Shown here one piece after another: positions 8,294-27,056 of a stretch of DNA of 64,000 nucleotides. A model generated the notes under the pieces. That model did not search any database and was not told the DNA's origin. It saw only the letters and a program-made list of their open reading frames with translations. A program made the position numbers and the translations under genes. The first letter of the stretch is position 1. The number at the start of each line of letters is the position of its first letter. Source of the DNA: Escherichia phage fjerdesal. The stretch is from the sequence record MN850605.1. The stretch is one strand, 5' to 3'.

Positions 8294-9910
8294 TCAACGT
8301 CTAAGCCCCTCATATGGATTTCCCCTCACTAAGTCTGTGTGAGCACCCATTGATGGTGGCTTGAATAATTTAACTTCGTTAAGACTGTTGAAAGCATCAC
8401 TGGTAGCATCCACTTGGTCATCTTTAGTTTTGCCATCACCACAAAAGCCTTCAAGCTCTTGGAAATAAGCTTCGTTCCAACTACCTCTCAAAACTTTTAC
8501 AAGTCCAGCTTCAGAAGCAGCAGAAAACCCCGCAAATCGGGTAACTTTATCTTTATTTGTTGGTTTAGCTCTTGCACGATAGCCTTTCTCAGCAAGTTTC
8601 CTGATGAGGGATGTTGCGTAGGATTTACCAGCAGCGCCTGGGTCTTGAGGGATAAAAATACCAGTTCGCTTACCGTCACTTTCAGCAGTCAAATTAATTT
8701 GTGTTTCGACTCCAGAGGGTCTATCTCTAAATCTTACTACATCAATGATATAATAGCAACCGTCTTTTTTAGATTTACCCATCTTAACACCTGCTGTCCA
8801 GTCTGGATTAGGGTTAACCTCAGATGGTAAAGTTGCTGCTAAGTCCCATGCTCTAACATCAAATATATCTTCTGGGAGTGAATCAACAATCTCACACCAT
8901 TGTCTTTGCCAGTAGTTTGAACCTTCTGCACGAGCCTTCCAGTTACCGAAACGAAGTCTTGCAACGTTTACAGGGGTGTTGTTTTCAAGCTTACCGCGAT
9001 ACTTTGGTTCTAAGAAGTCAAGAATTGGGTTATCATCAATCGTACCAGAGATGAAGGTGTATGTTTGAGGAATCTCAAGAGGGAACATTTCAAGAATCTT
9101 GTCTCTCTCCCAATCAGAAACCATCACACCATCATTCATTACATACCAACGAATACGACCACACTTTTCAGGGTCTGGGTAACCTTCTTCATCTAAGAAT
9201 GGTTCTACCCAATCGTAAATAAAGTGGTCTCTATCTGGGTTCATGGAAATCTTCATGTATGAATCACCTTCAGCACCAGAACGTAGACGGGTTTGTAGGT
9301 ATGAAATCTGTGAAGCAGAGAAGTGTGTACCTTCGTCAAAGTAAATAGCTGAGTATTCAATACCCTGATGGCCTTCAGCGTGCTTTTCAAGTTCTAGATA
9401 GGTAAACTTGATAGTCGCCCCAGAAGGGAATGTGATAGTCATTTTCTGCTCATGAGGAATCCCACCAAACTTACCAAATAGTTTCTTTGCAGCAGGCCAT
9501 AAACCACCTTGTAACTGTGTTGTATTTCGACGGAAATATACAGCATTATAGTTAGGGTCTTCAATAAATCTTAAAGAGTCCATTAACAATGCAGCAGTTT
9601 TACCAGCACCAGCAGCACCACCATAAAGAACCAAGTCAGCATTAGTGTTTAAAAAGACCTCTTGAGAACCCGGTTGAGGGGCTACATAGTTCTTATCAGT
9701 CATCAATTTAAAGATAAGGCGAACTTGGTCTGGTGTGTATCTTAATAAAGTCAGAATTTGAGTTGGAAGGAATTTAGAGGGGTCTTTACCGAATGATTTG
9801 ATAATTTCTTTTACTTCATCAGAAAGCCCCAACTCTCCAGCTAGGACTTTCCTAACATCTTCCACTCGCTTCTGCTTAACAGCATTTAAGTCCATTAAGC
9901 ACCTCCGCAA
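8294..9910 (-). CDS. terminase large subunit
   Basis: 538 aa with Walker A (GGAAGAGKT) and C-terminal nuclease-like region. Confidence 0.9.
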   Translation of the reverse strand: MRRCLMDLNAVKQKRVEDVRKVLAGELGLSDEVKEIIKSFGKDPSKFLPTQILTLLRYTPDQVRLIFKLMTDKNYVAPQPGSQEVFLNTNADLVLYGGAAGAGKTAALLMDSLRFIEDPNYNAVYFRRNTTQLQGGLWPAAKKLFGKFGGIPHEQKMTITFPSGATIKFTYLELEKHAEGHQGIEYSAIYFDEGTHFSASQISYLQTRLRSGAEGDSYMKISMNPDRDHFIYDWVEPFLDEEGYPDPEKCGRIRWYVMNDGVMVSDWERDKILEMFPLEIPQTYTFISGTIDDNPILDFLEPKYRGKLENNTPVNVARLRFGNWKARAEGSNYWQRQWCEIVDSLPEDIFDVRAWDLAATLPSEVNPNPDWTAGVKMGKSKKDGCYYIIDVVRFRDRPSGVETQINLTAESDGKRTGIFIPQDPGAAGKSYATSLIRKLAEKGYRARAKPTNKDKVTRFAGFSAASEAGLVKVLRGSWNEAYFQELEGFCGDGKTKDDQVDATSDAFNSLNEVKLFKPPSMGAHTDLVRGNPYEGLRR

Positions 9911-9916
9911 ATAGAA

Positions 9917-10117
9917 TTATTCAGAGTCTGTAGCAGTCTCTTCTTTCTTAACTTCGAACTTTGCATCAACAGCATCAAGAAGTGCATCCATAGAGGCTTC
10001 TTTGATATCAATACCTGTTGCTACAGATAATCTATCTGCAATTGCCATGATAGTGTTCTGCATAAATTCTAGCTTTTTGTTAGCTTCATAAAGTTCTTTA
10101 TAAACGGTCTCACTCAT
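9917..10117 (-). CDS. hypothetical small protein upstream of terminase
   Basis: 66-aa ORF with GGAGA Shine-Dalgarno 7 nt upstream of ATG. Confidence 0.5.
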   Translation of the reverse strand: MSETVYKELYEANKKLEFMQNTIMAIADRLSVATGIDIKEASMDALLDAVDAKFEVKKEETATDSE

Positions 10118-10164
10118 TATGTTTTCTCCAAATAATTAACCATGTTTCTCCTTAAAAAAGACGG

Positions 10165-10195
10165 CACAGAGACCGTCAAGGAGAAACCACAATGT
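10165..10195 (-). terminator. putative rho-independent terminator
   Basis: Minus strand GACGGTCTCTGTGCCGTC hairpin followed by TTTTTT. Confidence 0.5.
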
Positions 10196-10339
10196 ACGTC
10201 AGAGACATACTGTATAAGCCTTCTTATAAAGTATAACTCTGTAAAAAAGCCCTGTCTAAAAATACTCTTCGGTAGCGAAAGGAAGAATACTTATAGCAGG
10301 GCATTATTATTATTTTAATTGAGAGAGAGTAAAATAACT

Positions 10340-10415
10340 TGGAGAATCCGAAGGGACTCGAACCCTTATAAACCTGTTTTGCAGACAGGCACATATCCAT
10401 TTCTGTCACGGATTC
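10340..10415 (-). tRNA. tRNA-Cys (anticodon GCA)
   Basis: Perfect 7-bp acceptor stem, T-arm AAGGG/TTCGAGT/CCCTT, anticodon loop CTGCAAA, U73, encoded CCA. Confidence 0.75.
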
Positions 10416-10419
10416 AAAT

Positions 10420-10512
10420 TGGAGGAAGATACCAGACTTGAACTGGTACACCGATTTCTCAGCTACTGGCAGTTTAGCAAACTGCTCCCTTACCTTTTAG
10501 GGTTAATCTTCC
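10420..10512 (-). tRNA. tRNA-Ser (anticodon GCT), type II
   Basis: Acceptor GGAAGAT/ATCTTCC, anticodon stem GCAGT/ACTGC loop TTGCTAA, long variable arm, T-arm ACCAG/TTCAAGT/CTGGT. Confidence 0.7.
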
Positions 10513-10513
10513 A

Positions 10514-11248
10514 TTATTTCTGTAATGCGCTCTTCATTTCTGGTGTTGCAATAGTGTCAATCACACCAGTTTTACAAGCATCGTCAAACCAGTCTGGTAA
10601 GATACCTGCTAAGAACCCATTGATATTCGTTTTAAGGTACTCTGCAATAAGGGCAGCTTCTTCTTCAATCATCTGCACAACTTCATCTGCATAAGCTGTA
10701 ATCTTTGAAATACCTTCATTAATCTTACTGACAGCTTGGTTAGCTAAATCAGAAACAGTATCAAGACCCTTATCAATAGCATCTTGTAAGTCACTTAACA
10801 CACCATTAACACTATCTAGTGTACTGTTCATCATGTCAATAGCTTTTTGACCATACTCTGTAGCAACACCCATGATACCACTGAATGGTTTACAACCAAC
10901 TTGTTCTCCTGCTGCACCCATAACATTGGAATACCCCTTTGCTACCTGCATACGTGATGAAAACTCATCAATAGATTTTTGACCGTAGTCTGTCAGAGTT
11001 TTAGTAGTTGCTGTAGTGCTTGTAAGGCTTGTTGTAAAGCTGTTTAGAAGGACTGTTGTAAGTCCAGCAGCAACAAGTTTCTCCTTCATTGTAGGGTCTG
11101 TTACAGAACTAATAGAGCTTACAAGTGATGTAGAAGCAGCTACGGTTCCACCGAGAACTGCTGCACCAGTAATAAGCGGGTTAGAGAACCCTTTACCAGT
11201 TTTTAAGAGATTAAAAATCTCCTTACCTTGTTCTGTCATCTCTTTCAT
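10514..11248 (-). CDS. hypothetical protein (Ser/Thr-rich)
   Basis: ORF 10514..11311 in track; start trimmed to ATG at 11248 because upstream part overlaps tRNA-Phe; AGGTG SD. Confidence 0.5.
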   Translation of the reverse strand: MKEMTEQGKEIFNLLKTGKGFSNPLITGAAVLGGTVAASTSLVSSISSVTDPTMKEKLVAAGLTTVLLNSFTTSLTSTTATTKTLTDYGQKSIDEFSSRMQVAKGYSNVMGAAGEQVGCKPFSGIMGVATEYGQKAIDMMNSTLDSVNGVLSDLQDAIDKGLDTVSDLANQAVSKINEGISKITAYADEVVQMIEEEAALIAEYLKTNINGFLAGILPDWFDDACKTGVIDTIATPEMKSALQK

Positions 11249-11266
11249 TAAGCACCTTTGAAATTG

Positions 11267-11343
11267 GTAGTCCAGTGGGATTTGAACCCTCTTCTCATGT
11301 TTTTCAGACACGCGCTTTAACCATATAAGCTACTTGGACTATA
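11267..11343 (-). tRNA. tRNA-Phe (anticodon GAA)
   Basis: T-loop TTCAAAT, anticodon stem CGTGT/ACATG loop CTGAAAA, D-stem GCTT/AAGC; 5' region slightly noncanonical. Confidence 0.6.
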
Positions 11344-11348
11344 AATTG

Positions 11349-11424
11349 GGGTGACCTACGGGATTTGAACCCGTATAGACCATGTTCACAGCATGGGTCA
11401 TTACCGTTTATGATAAGGCCACAT
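11349..11424 (-). tRNA. tRNA-His (anticodon GTG)
   Basis: Acceptor GTGGCCT/AGGTCAC, anticodon stem CCATG/CATGG loop CTGTGAA, C73, encoded CCA. Confidence 0.7.
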
Positions 11425-11455
11425 TTAAGGACTCTCGCAAGAATCCTTAGAAGTG

Positions 11456-11531
11456 GCAGCGGCATAAGGATTTGAACCTTAATAGGACAGCTTCAGAGGC
11501 TGCTGCATTGCCAGTTATGCTATACCGCTAA
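11456..11531 (-). tRNA. tRNA-Gln (anticodon CTG)
   Basis: D-stem GCAT/ATGC, anticodon stem GCAGC/GCTGT loop CTCTGAA, T-arm TAAGG/TTCAAAT/CCTTA, G73. Confidence 0.7.
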
Positions 11532-11536
11532 ATTTG

Positions 11537-11615
11537 GTACTCCATATCGGATTCGAACCGATACATAACACAGATTTTAAGTCTGGCCTCTCTGCCAATT
11601 GGAGTAATGGAGCAT
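11537..11615 (-). tRNA. tRNA with anticodon TAA (Leu-type anticodon, short variable arm)
   Basis: Acceptor GCTCCAT/ATGGAGT, T-arm ATCGG/TTCGAAT/CCGAT, anticodon loop CTTAAAA, A73; only 76 nt plus CCA. Confidence 0.6.
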
Positions 11616-11617
11616 TG

Positions 11618-11693
11618 GCGGGGGATGTTGGAATTGAACCAACTTCTTCGATTTCAAAGACCGAGGTTTTAACCTTGTAAACTAATCCCCTTT
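11618..11693 (-). tRNA. tRNA-Gln (anticodon TTG)
   Basis: T-arm GTTGG/TTCAATT/CCAAC, anticodon stem TCGGT/ATCGA loop CTTTGAA, G73, A1-C72 mismatch. Confidence 0.6.
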
Positions 11694-11699
11694 AAATCT

Positions 11700-12257
11700 T
11701 TACTTTCTCAGTGGATGAATAAAGAATGCCAACATAACTCTTTCCCTTGAGAATGCTCTTTCTTCTGGGACAACACTTTTTAGTTTCCATCCAATATAAA
11801 TTCTCCAGTAAAATTGTTTACCAAAGATTTTAATTGATGGGATAAAAGCGAATAATCCCCAAGCATTACTGTTCCACATTAGGAGATAACCTGTCTGATT
11901 ATCTTCGGGGTCAGAACTTACGTTGATATTACCTTTCCACTTAGTAACATCTCTTACATCTCTTCCTAATACATGGTAAGAGAAGTTATAAGCTTTGTTT
12001 CTCCAGAGCCATCCGACTCTTTGCATGTAGACACCTAGTTTACCAATCCATCTAATATTAGCCCATCTTTTAACGTGACCTTCATCACCATCAATTGGGT
12101 TGTCATATGTCTCCATCCATCTGAACCCGAAAGGTAAGTGTCCTTTCTTCTCACTGTAGAATGGAACTACAAAAGGTGCTAAGATAACTGCTAAGATTGC
12201 TGCAAATGGCTCTAACAAAGCTAAGAAAATCCATGAAGCATACTTCAAATATCTCAT
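11700..12257 (-). CDS. hypothetical membrane protein embedded in tRNA cluster
   Basis: 185-aa ORF with hydrophobic N-terminal segments. Confidence 0.55.
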   Translation of the reverse strand: MRYLKYASWIFLALLEPFAAILAVILAPFVVPFYSEKKGHLPFGFRWMETYDNPIDGDEGHVKRWANIRWIGKLGVYMQRVGWLWRNKAYNFSYHVLGRDVRDVTKWKGNINVSSDPEDNQTGYLLMWNSNAWGLFAFIPSIKIFGKQFYWRIYIGWKLKSVVPEERAFSRERVMLAFFIHPLRK

Positions 12258-12276
12258 CTAAATAGCCTCTTTAAAT

Positions 12277-12352
12277 TGGCGCAGGATAAGGGATTCGAAC
12301 CCCTATTAACAGCTTCGTAGACTGTTGCTCTATCCATTTGAACTAATCCTGC
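12277..12352 (-). tRNA. tRNA-Arg (anticodon ACG)
   Basis: Perfect acceptor GCAGGAT/ATCCTGC, anticodon stem ACAGT/GCTGT loop CTACGAA, encoded CCA. Confidence 0.75.
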
Positions 12353-12357
12353 AAAAT

Positions 12358-12435
12358 TGGTGTTCCAAGACGGATTCGAACCGTCACTAATACAAGGTTT
12401 GAGCTTGCATCCTCTGCCAATTGGGATACTGGAAC
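12358..12435 (-). tRNA. tRNA with anticodon CAA (Leu-type anticodon, short variable arm)
   Basis: Acceptor GTTCCAG/TTGGAAC, T-arm GACGG/TTCGAAT/CCGTC, anticodon stem GCAAG/CTTGT loop CTCAAAC, A73. Confidence 0.6.
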
Positions 12436-12436
12436 A

Positions 12437-12511
12437 TGGTACTCACTAAAGGACTTGAACCTTTTTCTTCATCTTGTAAGGGTGATGTTTTACCATATAA
12501 ACTAAGCGAGT
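12437..12511 (-). tRNA. tRNA-Val (anticodon TAC)
   Basis: D-stem GTTT/AAAC, T-arm AAAGG/TTCAAGT/CCTTT, anticodon loop CTTACAA, A73. Confidence 0.7.
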
Positions 12512-12518
12512 ATGAAAG

Positions 12519-12607
12519 AGGTCTGAAGTTGTGCCGCTAACTCAACTTCGTGGAATTTGTTACGGTCTTCAGTTGACTCAAAGCGGTCTTTCACTTGACC
12601 TCTGAAT
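12519..12607 (-). ncRNA. structured non-tRNA spacer element (GAGGTC...GACCTC closing stem, internal GAAGACCG motifs)
   Basis: 89-bp gap in tRNA array; terminal inverted repeat and internal hairpin, no canonical T-loop. Confidence 0.3.
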
Positions 12608-12683
12608 TGGTGCTCCCACAAGGACTCGAACCCTGATAAGTTGCTTACAAGGCAACCATAATAACCAATTATACGATAGGAGC
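12608..12683 (-). tRNA. tRNA-Thr (anticodon TGT)
   Basis: Anticodon stem GTTGC/GCAAC loop CTTGTAA, T-arm CAGGG/TTCGAGT/CCTTG, encoded CCA. Confidence 0.75.
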
Positions 12684-12690
12684 ATTAATT

Positions 12691-12765
12691 TGGAGCATCC
12701 AGAGGGAATCGAACCCTCAACCTCAGTTTGGAAGACTGTAATTTTCCCGTTTAAACTATGGATGC
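12691..12765 (-). tRNA. tRNA-Gly (anticodon TCC)
   Basis: Acceptor GCATCCA/TGGATGC, T-arm GAGGG/TTCGATT/CCCTC, loop CTTCCAA, U73. Confidence 0.75.
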
Positions 12766-12771
12766 ACTAAT

Positions 12772-12846
12772 TGGTGGAGTCACTGAGAATTGAACTCAGT
12801 TCCCAAGTTTGCAAAACTCGAATTTTAACCATATAAACTATGACCC
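12772..12846 (-). tRNA. tRNA-Ala (anticodon TGC)
   Basis: Acceptor with G3-U70 wobble (Ala identity), anticodon loop TTTGCAA, T-arm CTGAG/TTCAATT/CTCAG. Confidence 0.75.
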
Positions 12847-12854
12847 CCATTGTT

Positions 12855-12930
12855 TGGTACAGGTGGAGGGAATTGAACCCATCGTCTTACTGATTAAGAG
12901 TCAGCCGCATAACCATTTTGCTACACCTGC
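12855..12930 (-). tRNA. tRNA-Lys (anticodon CTT)
   Basis: Acceptor GCAGGTG/CACCTGT, anticodon stem GCTGA/TCAGT loop CTCTTAA, T-loop TTCAATT. Confidence 0.65.
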
Positions 12931-12937
12931 ATTAATT

Positions 12938-13014
12938 TGGTACACCTAGAGAGATTCGAACTCACACTGAGCAGATTCTAAGTCTGCTGCCTCTACCAGT
13001 TGGGCTATAGGTGC
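12938..13014 (-). tRNA. tRNA with anticodon TAG (Leu-type anticodon, short variable arm)
   Basis: Canonical D-arm GCC/AACTGGTAGA/GGC, perfect anticodon stem GCAGA/TCTGC loop CTTAGAA, T-loop TTCGAAT, A73. Confidence 0.65.
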
Positions 13015-13020
13015 ATTAAA

Positions 13021-13101
13021 TCTTTTTAGAGAACTTCTAAGAACCTGAGCAACAAGGTTCCACAACAAGCGACTAATAACCTTAGAAGCCCTCTAAAAAG
13101 A
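13021..13101. repeat. long inverted repeat (about 20-bp arms, about 40-nt loop) in tRNA cluster
   Basis: tctttttagagaacttctaag ... cttagaagccctctaaaaaga are reverse complements. Confidence 0.5.
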
Positions 13102-13268
13102 CCTAAATAGGTCTTTGCATAGTCTTGTTTAATCCGGTGACTAGAACCTTTGGAGAGCTTGATATTATCTCTTCTCCGTGACACCTACTAGGTGCTTTGA
13201 CAGTGTACGACAATACACGAGGGATAAACCGACAATGCGAACAAGCATGGACGGAGTAAATCTTATTA

Positions 13269-13358
13269 GGCGGTAAGTAAAGGAGTCGAACCCTCACCGT
13301 ATCTCTACAGTGGCAACAGTTTTCAAGACTGTTTGGCTGCCATTAGCCGCTACCTACC
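13269..13358 (-). tRNA. tRNA-Ser (anticodon TGA), type II
   Basis: Acceptor GGTAGGT/ACTTACC, anticodon stem ACAGT/ACTGT loop CTTGAAA, long variable arm, G73. Confidence 0.7.
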
Positions 13359-13371
13359 CCTAATAAGACTT

Positions 13372-13454
13372 TGGCATGGGACGGAGGAGTTGAACCCCTT
13401 TGAAACGGTTTTGGAGGCCGTTGCTCATGCCTTAGAGTCTTAACATCGTCCCAT
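13372..13454 (-). tRNA. tRNA-like gene, possibly tRNA-Trp (anticodon CCA) with atypical D-arm
   Basis: Perfect acceptor ATGGGAC/GTCCCAT, G73, encoded CCA, T-loop TTCAACT; anticodon stem AACGG/CCGTT enclosing 9-nt loop CCTCCAAAA. Confidence 0.45.
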
Positions 13455-13596
13455 ATTATAATTCGAAGCTTACCCTGTTATCTCAACACTGTCAAGCTTC
13501 TTCTCAGATTATTTACATGTTCTGGAAAACATGAGATACAGACCACCTCCCTACAGGAAGACCCGCTAAGGCCGTCTAAGTAATCTGCTAACTATT

Positions 13597-13673
13597 TGGT
13601 ACACCCTACAGGATTCGAACCTGTAACTAACGATTTAGAAGACCGTTGCTCTATCCAATTGAACTAAGGGTGC
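13597..13673 (-). tRNA. tRNA-Arg (anticodon TCT)
   Basis: D-arm GTTC/AATTGGATA/GAGC, anticodon stem ACGGT/ATCGT loop CTTCTAA, T-arm ACAGG/TTCGAAT/CCTGT. Confidence 0.75.
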
Positions 13674-13875
13674 ATTATCTTTAAAGACTCTCTTAGAAAG
13701 CCCTTAAAGATGCCCACCTTATTAATCATACCGTGGGCGAGTACGCCAAATTCTTTGATGAGGGATTGGAAGACCTCACTGGTGTTTAGCCTATCAAGCT
13801 ACTGCCAGAAAAACATTGTCGTTTGCATTTATTTTAAATTTGCAAAATAGACGCTACGCAACGAAAACTAAGGTT

Positions 13876-13904
13876 ACTATAAAGTAGTCACATCTCAATG
13901 TCAA
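13876..13904 (-). promoter_or_regulatory. sigma70-type promoter inside tRNA cluster (TTGACA-N17-TATAGT)
   Basis: Minus-strand TTGACATTGAGATGTGACTACTTTATAGT; reads toward tRNA-Arg(TCT) sub-cluster. Confidence 0.55.
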
Positions 13905-13919
13905 CAACTTTATTGAAAT

Positions 13920-13995
13920 TGGTACTGGTAGGTGGAATCGAACCACCGATGTTCCCTTATCAGGGGAGTGTTATAACCTTCTTAACTATACCAGC
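13920..13995 (-). tRNA. tRNA-Ile (anticodon GAT)
   Basis: D-arm GTTA/AGAAGGTTA/TAAC, T-arm GGTGG/TTCGATT/CCACC, loop CTGATAA. Confidence 0.7.
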
Positions 13996-13996
13996 T

Positions 13997-14073
13997 TGGA
14001 GGTTCAGATGGGAATCGAACCCACATTCATAGGGCTTATGAGACCCTTGCATTACCTTATCTGCGACTGAACC
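13997..14073 (-). tRNA. tRNA-Met (anticodon CAT)
   Basis: Acceptor GGTTCAG/CTGAACC, anticodon stem AGGGT/GCCCT loop CTCATAA. Confidence 0.7.
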
Positions 14074-14077
14074 ATAT

Positions 14078-14153
14078 TGGTAGAAGTGGAGGGATTCGAA
14101 CCCATCGCCTGTCAGATTAAAAGTCTGCCGCATCACCATTCTGCTACACTTCC
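14078..14153 (-). tRNA. tRNA-Lys (anticodon TTT)
   Basis: Acceptor GGAAGTG/CACTTCT, loop CTTTTAA, T-loop TTCGAAT. Confidence 0.65.
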
Positions 14154-14163
14154 ATTAAATTAT

Positions 14164-14297
14164 CTTTGTAGATAAGCTACCCAGACTTGCTTAAGGTCTG
14201 TAGCGATGTGCCTTTTTTGGGTTTAAATCTAGAATTTACCCATTCACCCTTTGTGGTCGCATACTCACAAGTAAGCTTAATAACTTATCTACAAAGG
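14164..14297. repeat. 13-bp perfect inverted repeat (ctttgtagataag / cttatctacaaag) separated by about 108 bp
   Basis: Exact reverse-complement arms at 14164-14176 and 14285-14297. Confidence 0.5.
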
Positions 14298-14299
14298 TA

Positions 14300-14440
14300 A
14301 TTACCAGACCGTTGTTTATCATCTTAAGTGCTACCATTACACCAACTCGACATCTGCCGAGTGAAGGAATCGAACCTTCGCCTTTTCTTTACCGGAGAAA
14401 TAGATTGTTTAAGTTTTGCTGTAAACGGCCTTCTGTAAAT
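14300..14440 (-). ncRNA. candidate Y-RNA-like element containing a circularly permuted tRNA-like module
   Basis: Minus strand order: T-arm GAAGG/TTCGATT/CCTTC (14363-14379), closed acceptor-like hairpin ACTCGGC-AGAT-GTCGAGT (14345-14362), D-arm-like GTG/TAATGGTAG/CAC (14328-14343); flanked by AGGCCGTT / AACGGTCT complementary segments; no anticodon arm. Confidence 0.35.
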
Positions 14441-14586
14441 TTGTTGAGCCAGACCAAGTTTTAAATTTTCAAAATTAAATTGGCTTGAAAATATCATACG
14501 TTCTTGCTGAATTTGGTCTTCTGCTCCTTTAAAGAATACTCGTAAGAACTCTTTAAGGGAGGGGCTAAATAGCCCTCTCAAAATTG

Positions 14587-14661
14587 GCGGCTACGATGAG
14601 ACTTGAACTCACATCATCTCCCGTGACAGGGGAGTATTTTCTCCAGTTAAACTACATAGCC
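14587..14661 (-). tRNA. tRNA-Asp (anticodon GTC)
   Basis: Acceptor GGCTATG/CGTAGCC, perfect anticodon stem CTCCC/GGGAG loop CTGTCAC, G73, encoded CCA. Confidence 0.75.
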
Positions 14662-14666
14662 TTTAT

Positions 14667-14754
14667 TGGTGTGCCGTGTAGGAGTCGAACCTACCGAGTC
14701 TCAATGACAAGGGATTTACAGTCCCCACCGCTACCATCTACGGGATAACGACAC
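14667..14754 (-). tRNA. tRNA-Tyr (anticodon GTA), type II
   Basis: T-arm GTAGG/TTCGACT/CCTAC, anticodon loop CTGTAAA, long variable arm. Confidence 0.7.
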
Positions 14755-14762
14755 ATTTAATT

Positions 14763-14839
14763 TGGCGGTTAGTCAGGGATTCGAACCCTGTGCCATTCGC
14801 TTAACAGGCGACCGCACATACCTTATGTGCTTCCTAACC
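14763..14839 (-). tRNA. tRNA-Asn (anticodon GTT)
   Basis: T-arm CAGGG/TTCGAAT/CCCTG, anticodon loop CTGTTAA, G73. Confidence 0.65.
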
Positions 14840-14917
14840 TTAATACATTGCCAGACCGTGTTTTTTCTTTTATCCGCAAAAAAGTATTTTGTTGCTGAAT
14901 ACGGTCTTCTGCAAAAT

Positions 14918-14994
14918 TGGAGGCGGGTGCAGGAGTCGAACCTGCCGATACCATGCTAATGAGACATGTGAGACGCCCTTTCTCTATACCCGCA
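14918..14994 (-). tRNA. tRNA with anticodon CAT (Met or lysidine-type Ile2)
   Basis: T-arm GCAGG/TTCGACT/CCTGC, anticodon stem CATGT/GCATG loop CTCATTA. Confidence 0.6.
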
Positions 14995-15085
14995 ATTCTT
15001 AATGACCAGACCAAATCTCTTCTTTGTCCGATTTACCTTCAGATGAATAAGATTAAGTTTGCTGTAATTGGTCTTCTGTCAAAAC

Positions 15086-15163
15086 TGGCGTTCCAGAAGG
15101 GATTTGAACCCTCAGATATCCACTTTGAAAGAGTGGTGACTATACCATTTTGTCTACTGGAAC
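15086..15163 (-). tRNA. tRNA-Glu (anticodon TTC)
   Basis: Acceptor GTTCCAG/CTGGAAC, perfect anticodon stem CCACT/AGTGG loop CTTTCAA, G73. Confidence 0.75.
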
Positions 15164-15170
15164 ATTAATT

Positions 15171-15247
15171 TGGTCTCTGTTGGAGGACTTGAACCTCCGG
15201 CCTTACCGCCCCAAACGGAACGCTCTACCAATCTGAGCTAAACAGAG
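15171..15247 (-). tRNA. tRNA-Pro (anticodon TGG)
   Basis: Perfect acceptor CTCTGTT/AACAGAG, D-arm GCTC/AGATTGGTA/GAGC, loop TTTGGGG, T-arm GGAGG/TTCAAGT/CCTCC. Confidence 0.75.
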
Positions 15248-24600: not shown

Positions 24601-25149
24601 ATGGAAAAAGATAACTTAAAAGATGTTGAAGGTAACTATCTAGTACTTGACTGGAGTGATGTTCGAGAAGCACTCTCCGAAGAAAATCTTGACTGGTTCG
24701 AACAAATTATCTTTGCAGTACGGCATAACAGAGAAGTTGAAAATGGTAAAGAGCCACTTGAAGGAATCTTTGTAGAAAGGTCTTATCCGTTCTATGAAGA
24801 CACTTTGCAGAAAGTTAAAATGTACTTTAGACAGAAGAACCGTAAAGTGGTCACTATGGTATCTCTTGGTGGACAGAGTATGTCTGTGATGGAAGATATC
24901 AACCCTAAGAGACCGAGTAAAGGCGTTTGTATAAAAATCACAGGACATGAAGAGTATATCTCAGTTGATGACTTTAGTGCATTCTGTAATGGCTCTTGTG
25001 TCTTTAATGGTTTTCACTATGATATCCGAGTTTACCCAATCAAGGGTGATGATATCATGATGCAGGTATTCGATAATAACAATGGATTTACTCATTTTTA
25101 TCAGACAACCAAGTCATCATTGAAAACAGTTCTGGAAACACTGATTTAA
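24601..25149 (+). CDS. hypothetical protein
   Basis: Track ORF 24526..25149 trimmed to internal ATG to avoid 62-nt overlap with upstream gene; start uncertain. Confidence 0.45.
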   Translation: MEKDNLKDVEGNYLVLDWSDVREALSEENLDWFEQIIFAVRHNREVENGKEPLEGIFVERSYPFYEDTLQKVKMYFRQKNRKVVTMVSLGGQSMSVMEDINPKRPSKGVCIKITGHEEYISVDDFSAFCNGSCVFNGFHYDIRVYPIKGDDIMMQVFDNNNGFTHFYQTTKSSLKTVLETLI

Positions 25150-25160
25150 AATATCTTAAG

Positions 25161-25186
25161 AGCCTCCTTAATTGGGGGCTTTTTAA
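25161..25186 (+). terminator. rho-independent terminator ending the plus-strand block
   Basis: AGCCTCC-TTAATTG-GGGGCT hairpin followed by TTTTT. Confidence 0.55.
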
Positions 25187-26744
25187 TTTTTATAAAATTT
25201 TATCGGTTGTCCCAACCTCTGGGTCACCATCATATGTGAATAAAATATCTATCCTTCTTAACAACCTTCTTAATCTTACTCTCTATATAGTTATATAGTA
25301 CTATATAGTATCTTAGTAACTATCTAGTGGTCTTAATAGCCCTCTGTATAGCCCTTCTAAATAGCCATCTAAACACTCTTCTAACAAGCCTTCTAAACAA
25401 CCTATACAATCATCTTAACCATCTCTCTATATCCTCTTAGAAGCTCCTATACACCTCTTAATCTCTAGGTTAGCTATGTTACTCTCTATAGGTGTTCACT
25501 AGGTACTACTAAGCCTCTATATAGACTGTTTTAACAAACTTAACAGGAATATCTTCACAGACCTTATCTCACAAGGTCTAACACGGTACTAACAAGGTAT
25601 CTTATAAGCCTGTTATTACCTGTATTTTTAAAAGGCTGTATAGGTAATTATTCAGAATCTTAAAATTTTTATAAAATAGGGCTATCAAGTCATTTTTTAG
25701 GGTCTTTGAAGGAACTGAAAAATATCTGATTAGGATGTATATCTGCTTGGTAGCCCTTAACAGCCCCTTAACACCCCCTTTGCAAAATTTTAAAATATCC
25801 TTAACAATCTCTTAACAGTTCTCACATCTTCTTAACAACCCTTCAAAGGTCTTAACAGATTCTTAACAGAACTAACAAGGCTGTAACAGTTTTCTAACAA
25901 GTGCTGAATAGGCTTTACAGAATCTTAACAGATGACTAACAAGAGCTAACAAGTTAATTTTAAAGAGTTATTTTGTTAAGATAATTAACAAGTTCCTAAC
26001 AAGTGTTTAATCTTTTTAACAAGCTATTAACATGGTCACTATCTCTTGGTCTATAGTTCCCTTTCCCTCTTAGTGATTCTTTAAACATACCTCTTAAAAG
26101 CTCTCTATAGCTCTTTATAAGCTCTTTTAAGTCTCTTCCTAGTAGTTACACCCCAACTATACAGAAAGCTTTTTATAGGGCTTTACAGGAGCTTTTAAGG
26201 CTATGTCAAAGGCTCTTACAAGGCTTTTACATGGTCTTAACAGAGATTTAACAAGGGGCTAACAAGTCTCTAACAAGTGCCTTAAAAGCATAACTATGTA
26301 GGGATTGTTAAGAAATTGTTAAGAAAATGTTAAGGGGGCTAGCATTTACGTAACTTTTAAGCTACTTTATATCCCCTATAACATACTTTTAAGACACTAA
26401 CAAGCCCTTTTTAGATATTCACAAGATAGCTAACGAGATGATAAAGCTTACACCCTTATAAGATTCTTTTAAGGCTGTAGGAAGCTTTATAAAGAGCTTT
26501 TAAGGGTGAGTTAATGCAATCCCTTAAGTTAGGTTGATAAGGCTGTTATAGAGCTTTATAGAGCGTTTAAACGGTTGCCCTTCCCTTTCGGGTTATGGGC
26601 TTTTATTTAAGTTGATTTGATAAGAGATTATAGAGTAGACTATAGAGTTATTGCTTTTAAGGTCTGGTAAGATTCTATCGAATCAGTAGGGTAGATTCTG
26701 GAAAGGAAAGGAAAGGGATTGTATAGAGGTTATTACATAGACGT
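25187..26744. repeat. 1.6-kb ORF-free motif-dense region (CTTAACAR / CTAACAAG array; GCTTTATAAAGAGCTTTTAAGG family)
   Basis: No ORF of 60 aa or more on any strand; many short direct repeats; lies between convergent plus- and minus-strand gene blocks. Confidence 0.6.
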
Positions 26745-26790
26745 AAAAAAGCCCCTATGAGAAGGAGCTTTGCAGGTATCTGGGGCTATT
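26745..26790 (-). terminator. putative terminator for minus-strand early array
   Basis: Minus strand GCCCC...GGGGC hairpin followed by TTTTTT. Confidence 0.35.
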
Positions 26791-26807
26791 TAGCCCCGTT
26801 GCGTCGA

Positions 26808-27056
26808 TTAGTTGTAACCTTGTTTATTGTAGTACAGTGAGATAATCAAGTCACCCCAGTAATGATAGTGATGCTCGTCGTTTAATGCCTCTTTTACAGC
26901 GTCTTTCCAGAAGTCATCAGTAGGGTTATAATCTGGGATAACTTGCTTGATAACTGTCTTCACTAATGAAAAGCATTCATCAGTTCCACCGATATCAAAT
27001 TTAACGTCCAGAGTATAACAGCCATAAGCATTGACAGTTGCGCGGATAGTTGCCAT
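26808..27056 (-). CDS. hypothetical early protein
   Basis: 82-aa ORF preceded by conserved promoter-hairpin-SD cassette. Confidence 0.55.
   Translation of the reverse strand: MATIRATVNAYGCYTLDVKFDIGGTDECFSLVKTVIKQVIPDYNPTDDFWKDAVKEALNDEHHYHYWGDLIISLYYNKQGYN

Follow-up and report, generated by a model that had tools for sequence, protein, structure and literature searches.

The question raised by positions 25150-26807 of the 64,000-nucleotide stretch of Escherichia phage fjerdesal analysed here (sequence record MN850605.1; the window) is what a phage does with some 1.66 kb of DNA that holds no gene and is crowded with short repeats. An earlier note, made from the letters of the window, had suggested genome termini or a packaging region, a partition or other protein-binding array, an origin, or a source of non-coding RNAs. 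The region is enclosed by convergent genes, the plus-strand open reading frame (ORF) on its left stopping at 25149 and the minus-strand ORF on its right stopping at 26808, and the claim that it contains no ORF of 60 aa or more holds, the longest being of 37 aa (25327-25440, plus strand) and the next of 30 aa (25996-26088, minus strand). We conclude that positions 25150-26807 are very probably a concatemer junction, composed of a left flank, a predicted direct terminal repeat (DTR) of about 591 bp and a right flank, with the ends placed by homology (87-93%) to those of related phages.

Searches with the region returned 256 phage records, almost all of Felix O1-like myophages and mostly Felixounavirus, the best match being Escherichia phage heid (94.8% identity over 100% of the region), with Suspvirus and Mooglevirus matching at 77-82% identity; judged by this similarity, the source phage of the window is a Felixounavirus (Felix O1-like). 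Most of the relatives' records leave the stretch unannotated or label it merely as 'repeat_region' or 'terminator', and some carry short 'hypothetical proteins' there. The record of Pr103Blw opens inside the region and has a 581-bp 'short direct terminal repeat' annotated at both of its ends, which was derived with PhageTerm (Pr103Blw paper). When the two ends of each record were compared, exact terminal duplications were found in Pr103Blw (581 bp), D4 (581 bp), SPJ41 (613 bp) and CRP22 (579 bp), which come from different laboratories, the use of PhageTerm being documented for Pr103Blw and D4. The junctions are identical in all four records, with ...ATATCTGCTT giving way to GGTAGCCCTTAACA at the left cut, and TGTTAAGGGGGC giving way to TAGCATTTACGTAAC, a right side that begins TAGC, at the right cut. 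They align to the window between 25748 and 25749 and between 26339 and 26340, and the records of NBEco004, Ro111lw and EcSzw_1 open at the same nucleotide too.

Alignment to the 581-bp DTR of Pr103Blw and to the DTR of UAB_69 thus yielded a predicted DTR of 591 bp at 25749-26339, which starts GGTAGCCCTTAACA, ends TGTTAAGGGGGC and has boundaries uncertain by about 2 nt. The UAB_69 record carries a 618-bp DTR at the same place (L007 2096-2713), with boundaries 2 nt wider on each side; this offset from the four duplicated records may reflect staggered cuts with 2-nt overhangs or an artefact of method. Short DTRs were reported in the UAB_69 paper, and the 608-bp DTR of UAB_Phi87 was established by Bal31 sensitivity of terminal fragments and run-off sequencing (Bardina et al. 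2016), its coordinates not being given in the available part of that text. Short terminal repeats had already been inferred in the original Felix O1 paper (Whichard et al., 2010). The suggestion of genome termini or a packaging region is therefore supported, as the physical ends of relatives map to 25749 and 26339, and the comparison with related phages that had been proposed as a check showed the region to be conserved and to house their mapped DTR ends.

The window carries each boundary sequence exactly and only once, and no second copy of the repeat was found in its 64 kb. Since the boundary sequences occur once each, the assembly appears to hold the repeat as a single internal (collapsed) copy, which is the form taken at a concatemer junction. 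In phages with short DTRs, such as T7, the genomes are joined head to tail in concatemers with one copy of the repeat at each junction, and terminase opens each new genome with a cut at one boundary and closes off its predecessor with a cut at the other, the repeat becoming duplicated during this processing. Immediately outside the left cut lies a TGTATATCTGCTT box (25736-25748, plus strand) that is identical in 13 genomes of three genera and in Kolesnikvirus SE5, and the terminus directly follows TGTATATCTGCTT in Pr103Blw, D4, SPJ41 and CRP22. Three genera show little or no variation in either TGTATATCTGCTT or TGTTAAGGGGGCTAGC. A further physical end was traced in a fourth genus. The record of Erwinia phage vEam_W_25 (PP079183.1), a Kolesnikvirus, closes with 9 nt, AGATCGGAA, that are the start of an Illumina adapter and hence a contaminant, and the phage sequence halts no more than about 1 nt from where the left cut would map by homology; this adapter remnant implies that a real physical DNA end lies there.

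The DTRs of UAB_Phi87 (608 bp), UAB_69 (618 bp) and Pr103Blw (581 bp) are homologous to the repeat described here at 87-93% identity, and those of Pr103Blw and UAB_69 are also alike in lying between the same convergent genes and in ending at the same boundary nucleotides (2 nt wider in UAB_69). The present repeat differs from these Felixounavirus DTRs in its predicted length of 591 bp, and by homology it is the same element. The number of 11-nt units varies between relatives, as heid has one additional TTGTTAAGAAA unit at the right end and Pr103Blw is one 11-nt unit short (window 26300-26334 and 26277-26290), and in UAB_69 22 nt are inserted into the main array of motifs (described below). It is these gains and losses of 11- and 22-nt units that make the repeat lengths of the relatives differ, and make them differ in whole helical turns.

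The repeats themselves are built largely on a pentamer, TAACA. There are 29 copies on the plus strand of 25150-26807, where 2.5 would be expected from the rest of the window, and a further 7 in inverted orientation, so that the region holds 36 against about 4-5 expected. Longer forms are similarly concentrated: 20 of the 91 copies of TTAACA in the whole 64-kb window fall inside the region, as do 13 of the 26 copies of CTTAACAR (8.9 ± 3.2 window-wide in shuffled sequences) and 10 of the 15 copies of CTAACAAG (3.6 ± 2.0 in shuffles). The densest part, 25750-26030, has TTAACA 12 times and TAACA 18 times (17 on the plus strand and 1 on the minus strand). For this part the earlier note had counted more than ten CTTAACAR, which was an overstatement, the exact 8-mer being present 8 times (7 plus, 1 minus), and about five copies of CTAACAAG, of which there are exactly 5. 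Its second family is real but loose, with copies only 69-78% alike (at approximately 26097-26134, 26165-26202, 26452-26508 and 26534-26577); it corresponds to repeat families D6-D8, and its core, CTTTTAAG, has 9 occurrences for an expectation of 0.5. For a third family, CT(C/A)TATAG (CTMTATAG), 5 sites were counted where 0.05 would be expected.

The copies are also phased, at about 10.5-11 bp. Neighbouring TAACA cores are spaced by 11, 20-22 or 31 nt, the best phasing period is 10.25-10.5 nt, and autocorrelation over the 1.66 kb gave peaks at lags of 10-11, 21-22 and 31-32 (z = 4-9 relative to all other pieces of the window of the same size); Tandem Repeats Finder (TRF) likewise reported many short arrays with a period of 10-12. 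The main direct array occupies 25757-26032 on the plus strand, with 17 TAACA cores in the form of CTTAACAR, CTAACAAG or TTAACA at spacings of mostly 11, 20 and 31 nt, and with one inverted TAACA at 25974. It is followed by a centre of 200 nt (26036-26235) that is without TAACA and is made of the AGCTYTTWWAAG / CTTTTAAG family in units of about 10-11 nt, TRF arrays of period 10-11 being located at 26087-26137 and 26209-26239. Four direct TAACA with an exact spacing of 11 nt come next (26237-26275, plus strand; positions 26238, 26249, 26260 and 26271), and then three inverted TTAACA, also spaced by exactly 11 nt (26305-26333, minus strand), the last of which stops 6 nt short of the right cut. 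This inverted triplet is near-invariant across three genera. The predicted repeat as a whole holds 25 copies of the TAACA core. Read inward, both virion ends open with CCCTTAACA, the left end as GGTAGCCCTTAACAGCCCCTTAACA and the right end as GCCCCCTTAACATTTTCTTAACA, with GCCCCCTTAACATTTTCTTAACAATTTCTTAACA as its first letters. Intrinsic curvature was considered and rejected as a property of the region, since its mean of 6.4 degrees per turn compares with a window mean of 6.2, 25% of windows of the same size reach at least that value and no bent segment was predicted (wedge model of the Bolshoy type).

The arrangement of the motifs bears on whether the region could instead encode non-coding RNAs or small peptides, as annotated in some relatives, a reading that we regard as very improbable. 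'Hypothetical proteins' of 25-53 aa are annotated here in several records, and a 26-aa ORF at 25735-25815 (plus strand), MYICLVALNSPLTPPLQNFKISLTIS, is unbroken in 12 of the 13 genomes, which represent three genera. However, no conservation of the annotated small ORFs was seen from genome to genome, and in the 26-aa ORF 7, 2 and 6 columns vary at codon positions 1, 2 and 3, respectively, which is not a coding-like pattern; this ORF is frameshifted in LMP34 and has an AGGA that directly abuts its ATG. It also spans the physical end, its start lying 14 nt beyond the left cut, and would be complete only in concatemer junctions and at the right end of virion DNA. From the variation across codon positions, together with the frameshift in LMP34, we argue that its persistence is a by-product of the conservation of cis-elements. 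Folded as a single strand, the repeat is more stable than shuffled sequences (z = -3.6 and -2.6), which would suit an RNA; the two ends of the repeat, however, form inverted repeats (I1, I2 and I7) that are 70-86% complementary over 22-47 nt, and the stability is traced to the complementarity of these inverted motif arrays. A search of Rfam 15 (E <= 1) gave Phe_leader as its sole match, over the plus-strand terminator, at 26 bits against a gathering threshold of 55 (E = 0.16), no tRNA was detected in the region by a tRNA scan, and sigma-70-like promoters were not enriched (11 against 7.1 ± 3.1 in shuffles). With no credible Rfam match and promoters at background, the idea of a source of non-coding RNAs found no support.

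It could also be envisaged that the region is a spacer between convergent transcription units, in which slippage has generated low-complexity DNA rich in stop codons and only the two cut sites are functional. The convergent blocks each have a terminator of their own, TAA or TAG is present in every motif family, and the differences in 11-nt copy number among relatives (one TTGTTAAGAAA more in heid, one unit fewer in Pr103Blw) would be expected of slippage. Against this stands the conservation of the DNA. The repeat is 80% identical to that of SUSP2 and 77% to that of Moogle, while the two flanking genes reach 58-66%, so that the non-coding DNA outconserves the genes beside it across genera. In an alignment of 13 genomes from three genera, TAACA columns within the repeat are 95.5% conserved against 83.6% for the other columns (circular-shift p = 0.003), the cores being significantly better conserved than the spacers. 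The length of the non-coding stretch is steady, at 1.59-1.74 kb in all 13 genomes and about 1.45 kb in Kolesnikvirus SE5, and each of the 13 has 22-31 direct and 5-8 inverted TAACA. The Kolesnikvirus phages (Salmonella phage SE5 and Erwinia phage vEam_W_25) have their 1.45-kb stretch between convergent genes as well, with 17 direct TTAACA and the inverted copies to the right of these. These convergent genes, compared with the ones beside the region in search of a candidate binder, showed no detectable similarity to them. Eight TAACA cores of SE5 align with those of the window, at spacings of 11-20-20-20-9-11-11 in SE5 and 11-20-20-11-9-11-11 here; the array spacing thus persists in Kolesnikvirus although the spacers cannot be aligned, and in Moogle and SE5 the cores of the main array do not vary, in contrast to the divergent spacers. 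Judged from these alignments, the non-coding DNA itself is under selection, both in the repeat relative to the flanking genes and in the TAACA cores relative to their spacers, and a passive spacer is improbable.

What then would the arrays be for? The full explanation, namely a concatemer junction equipped with a packaging array, is one that we consider likely; the assignment of the TAACA arrays in particular as packaging recognition sites is held more cautiously, at a little below even chances. In the proposed mechanism the large terminase subunit (TerL) would cut at both boundaries of the repeat, and the helically phased TAACA cores would serve as binding sites for a packaging specificity factor, either TerL itself or an unrecognised small protein, from which a nucleoprotein complex would be built along one DNA face. 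The two cuts would be positioned by the copies that face inward beside each boundary, the flank families CTTTTAAG and CTMTATAG might act as accessory sites of the same complex, and the terminators of both gene blocks would keep convergent transcription out of the arrays. The earlier suggestion of a protein-binding array remains plausible in that it fits the motif-specific conservation. Its more specific form, a partition array, is unlikely, as this is a virulent phage and no par gene is present among the nine ORFs scanned; a ParA/ParB-type pair was not found beside the array, where the flanking genes match only PHROGs of unknown function, and the relatives are virulent phages without lysogeny genes.

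TerL is encoded at 8294-9910 on the minus strand, about 16 kb from the repeat (PHROG 979, E = 2.6e-233; Pfam Terminase_6N and Terminase_6C). The protein is full length and of the T4 type, and its DNA neighbourhood is 96-100% identical to that of Felixounavirus relatives. Its presumed membership of the DTR-generating Felix O1 clade is taken from Bardina et al. (2016). The nine ORFs scanned around TerL and the region (PHROGs and Pfam) matched, apart from TerL, families of unknown function only.

Several points weigh against the packaging interpretation as set out above. The ends of this phage are placed by homology only, to within about 2 nt, and no protein is known to bind TAACA. No small terminase subunit (TerS) was recognised next to TerL or the region among these nine ORFs, the ORF upstream of TerL is annotated as a small terminase in 0 of 60 sampled relatives (all 'hypothetical protein'), and the 66-aa protein that it encodes here is acidic and helical-looking, unlike a DNA binder. 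In Felix O1, too, no small terminase was found (Whichard et al., 2010). Most copies in the arrays are interior to the repeat and away from the cuts, and cutting specificity by itself would not obviously call for such a number. Finally, the right boundary in Kolesnikvirus, where ATGTTGCAG is followed by AGATG, lacks the CCCTTAACA end motif.

Known packaging systems offer partial parallels to the proposed recognition sites. At the T7 concatemer junction, specific pac signals direct the terminase. The T7/T3 junction (160-bp repeat, pacB/pacC) resembles the present one in its short, exact and non-permuted repeat with one copy per junction, and in the sequence-specific terminase cuts at both boundaries that are proposed here, and differs in that there is no sequence similarity, that the present phage is a myovirus with a T4-type TerL and that no gp18-like TerS was recognised; the repeat here is also four times longer. 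T7 reportedly has arrays of short direct repeats (SRL, SRR) associated with its terminal repeat, as Dunn and Studier are said to have described in 1983. Those of T7 lie beside the repeat, whereas the arrays here fall mainly within it, have a phase of about one helical turn and take the inverted orientation at the right end. The occurrence of short-repeat arrays in and beside a terminal repeat is thus a likeness to T7 by analogy and not by family membership. In SPP1 (pacL/pacR) and lambda (the R-sites of cosB), multiple boxes at helical-turn spacing lie by the cut, and the usual view is that DNA wraps on an oligomeric TerS. Those phages, in contrast, use headful or cos packaging with an identified TerS, whereas 25 copies, far more, are present here, no TerS was recognised and predicted intrinsic curvature is not elevated. 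We offer tentatively, as a possibility more doubtful than the general assignment to packaging recognition, that the arrays may form the recognition platform of a DTR packaging system that lacks any recognisable TerS, read by TerL or by a small protein, with the opposite orientations specifying both cuts, and that they may act as origin iterons as well. This proposal draws on the conservation of the phased arrays in four Ounavirinae genera and on their inward orientation at the two virion ends.

A replication origin, beside packaging or in place of it, is another reading of the arrays. They would then be iterons, with an initiator binding TAACA and melting AT-rich DNA. The region does contain many phased short direct repeats, and the most AT-rich stretch of the region, at 24% G+C (25600-25699), adjoins the main array and lies about 50 nt from the left cut site; neither the repeats nor the AT-rich stretch is specific to origins. 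Strand composition switches within the region, the plus strand passing from C-rich (to about 26150) to G-rich (from about 26450), as might be seen at an origin, but this flip follows equally from the inverted orientation of the motifs. The conservation of motif cores extends beyond the cut sites themselves, although the mapped ends already account for the conservation at the boundaries. For DnaA-box-like TTWTNCACA the window count is 7 (expected 10.8), one site being in the region, and no initiator or DNA-binding domain was detected in the flanking genes (PHROGs, Pfam). The iteron origins of lambda (ori) and of plasmids (oriV) similarly have helix-phased direct repeats beside an AT-rich stretch; unlike these, the core here is much shorter (5-8 nt) and present in many more copies, no adjacent initiator gene or DnaA boxes were found, and the element coincides with mapped genome ends. 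An origin, which could exist alongside the putative packaging array, is considered unlikely.

The terminal repeat and its location are already known for the genus. The literature searched contained no description of TAACA arrays and no Felixounavirus transcriptome; the papers on UAB_Phi87, UAB_69, Pr103Blw and Felix O1, in their available parts, deal with the existence or length of the repeat and not with its motif architecture, and this intergenic region goes unmentioned in the main text of the Bas63 PhageMaP study. The motif architecture, that is the phasing, the conservation of cores in four genera and the inverted arrangement at both ends, therefore appears to be undescribed. The feature is ordinary for the genus, and its architecture is a modest, testable addition. 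For annotation, the analysis gives the predicted true ends of this genome, in a genus whose records have been opened at arbitrary points and, in several cases, have spurious small 'hypothetical proteins' annotated within the terminal repeat. Typing, biocontrol and therapy of Salmonella and E. coli make wide use of Felix O1-like phages, and the boxes at the cut sites and the phased TAACA array are mutable targets for studying how DNA is recognised and cut without a recognisable small terminase, as well as for making packaging-competent or packaging-deficient constructs.

The remaining features of the region lie outside the repeat. Terminators at the ends of both gene blocks, which the earlier note had placed at the borders of the region, were confirmed as hairpins. 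That of the plus-strand block is a Rho-independent terminator at 25158-25183 (plus strand), in which the scanner found a 10-pair stem followed by a T-run, and the records of KhF3 and Moogle have a terminator annotated at the same relative position. That of the minus-strand block, at 26748-26771 (minus strand), is a hairpin followed by U6 (fold of 26730-26812, minus strand: -26.4 kcal/mol, z = -3.6), and the Moogle record has a terminator at the equivalent place. The left non-coding flank (25150-25748) is unique sequence that would lie just inside the right-hand copy of the DTR in virion DNA. It contains degenerate units of about 12 nt, TCTTAAnAGCC (25331-25403), together with CT(C/A)TATAG sites and TRF arrays of period 10-12, and is 94.7% identical to Felix O1, compared with only 88.5% for the adjacent gene. 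The right flank (26340-26807), also unique, would lie just inside the left-hand DTR copy; it opens with the conserved TAGCATTTACGTAAC and carries CTTTTAAG / GCTTTATAGAG units. A weakly conserved island (26650-26740, 47-60% column conservation) interrupts this flank, which is conserved otherwise, just upstream of the minus-strand terminator, and within the island lies a GGAAA microsatellite of 3.4 units (26700-26716).

On the TerL side, 26 tRNA genes are clustered at 10340-15247 (minus strand), directly upstream of the 66-aa ORF and TerL, in keeping with reports of more than 20 tRNAs in this genus. The segment upstream of TerL (9880-10340) is 100% identical to garuso and vB_Eco_Tribble, whereas the repeat region is closest to heid (94.8%) and only 91.2% identical to garuso; the differing nearest relatives of 9880-10340 and 25150-26807 indicate mosaic ancestry within the genus. 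The region was also matched at 88.6% identity, over 97% of the query, by positions 135357-137078 of GU169904.1 (Staphylococcus phage SA1, 147 kb), and this match suggests that the record is a chimeric or contaminated deposit.

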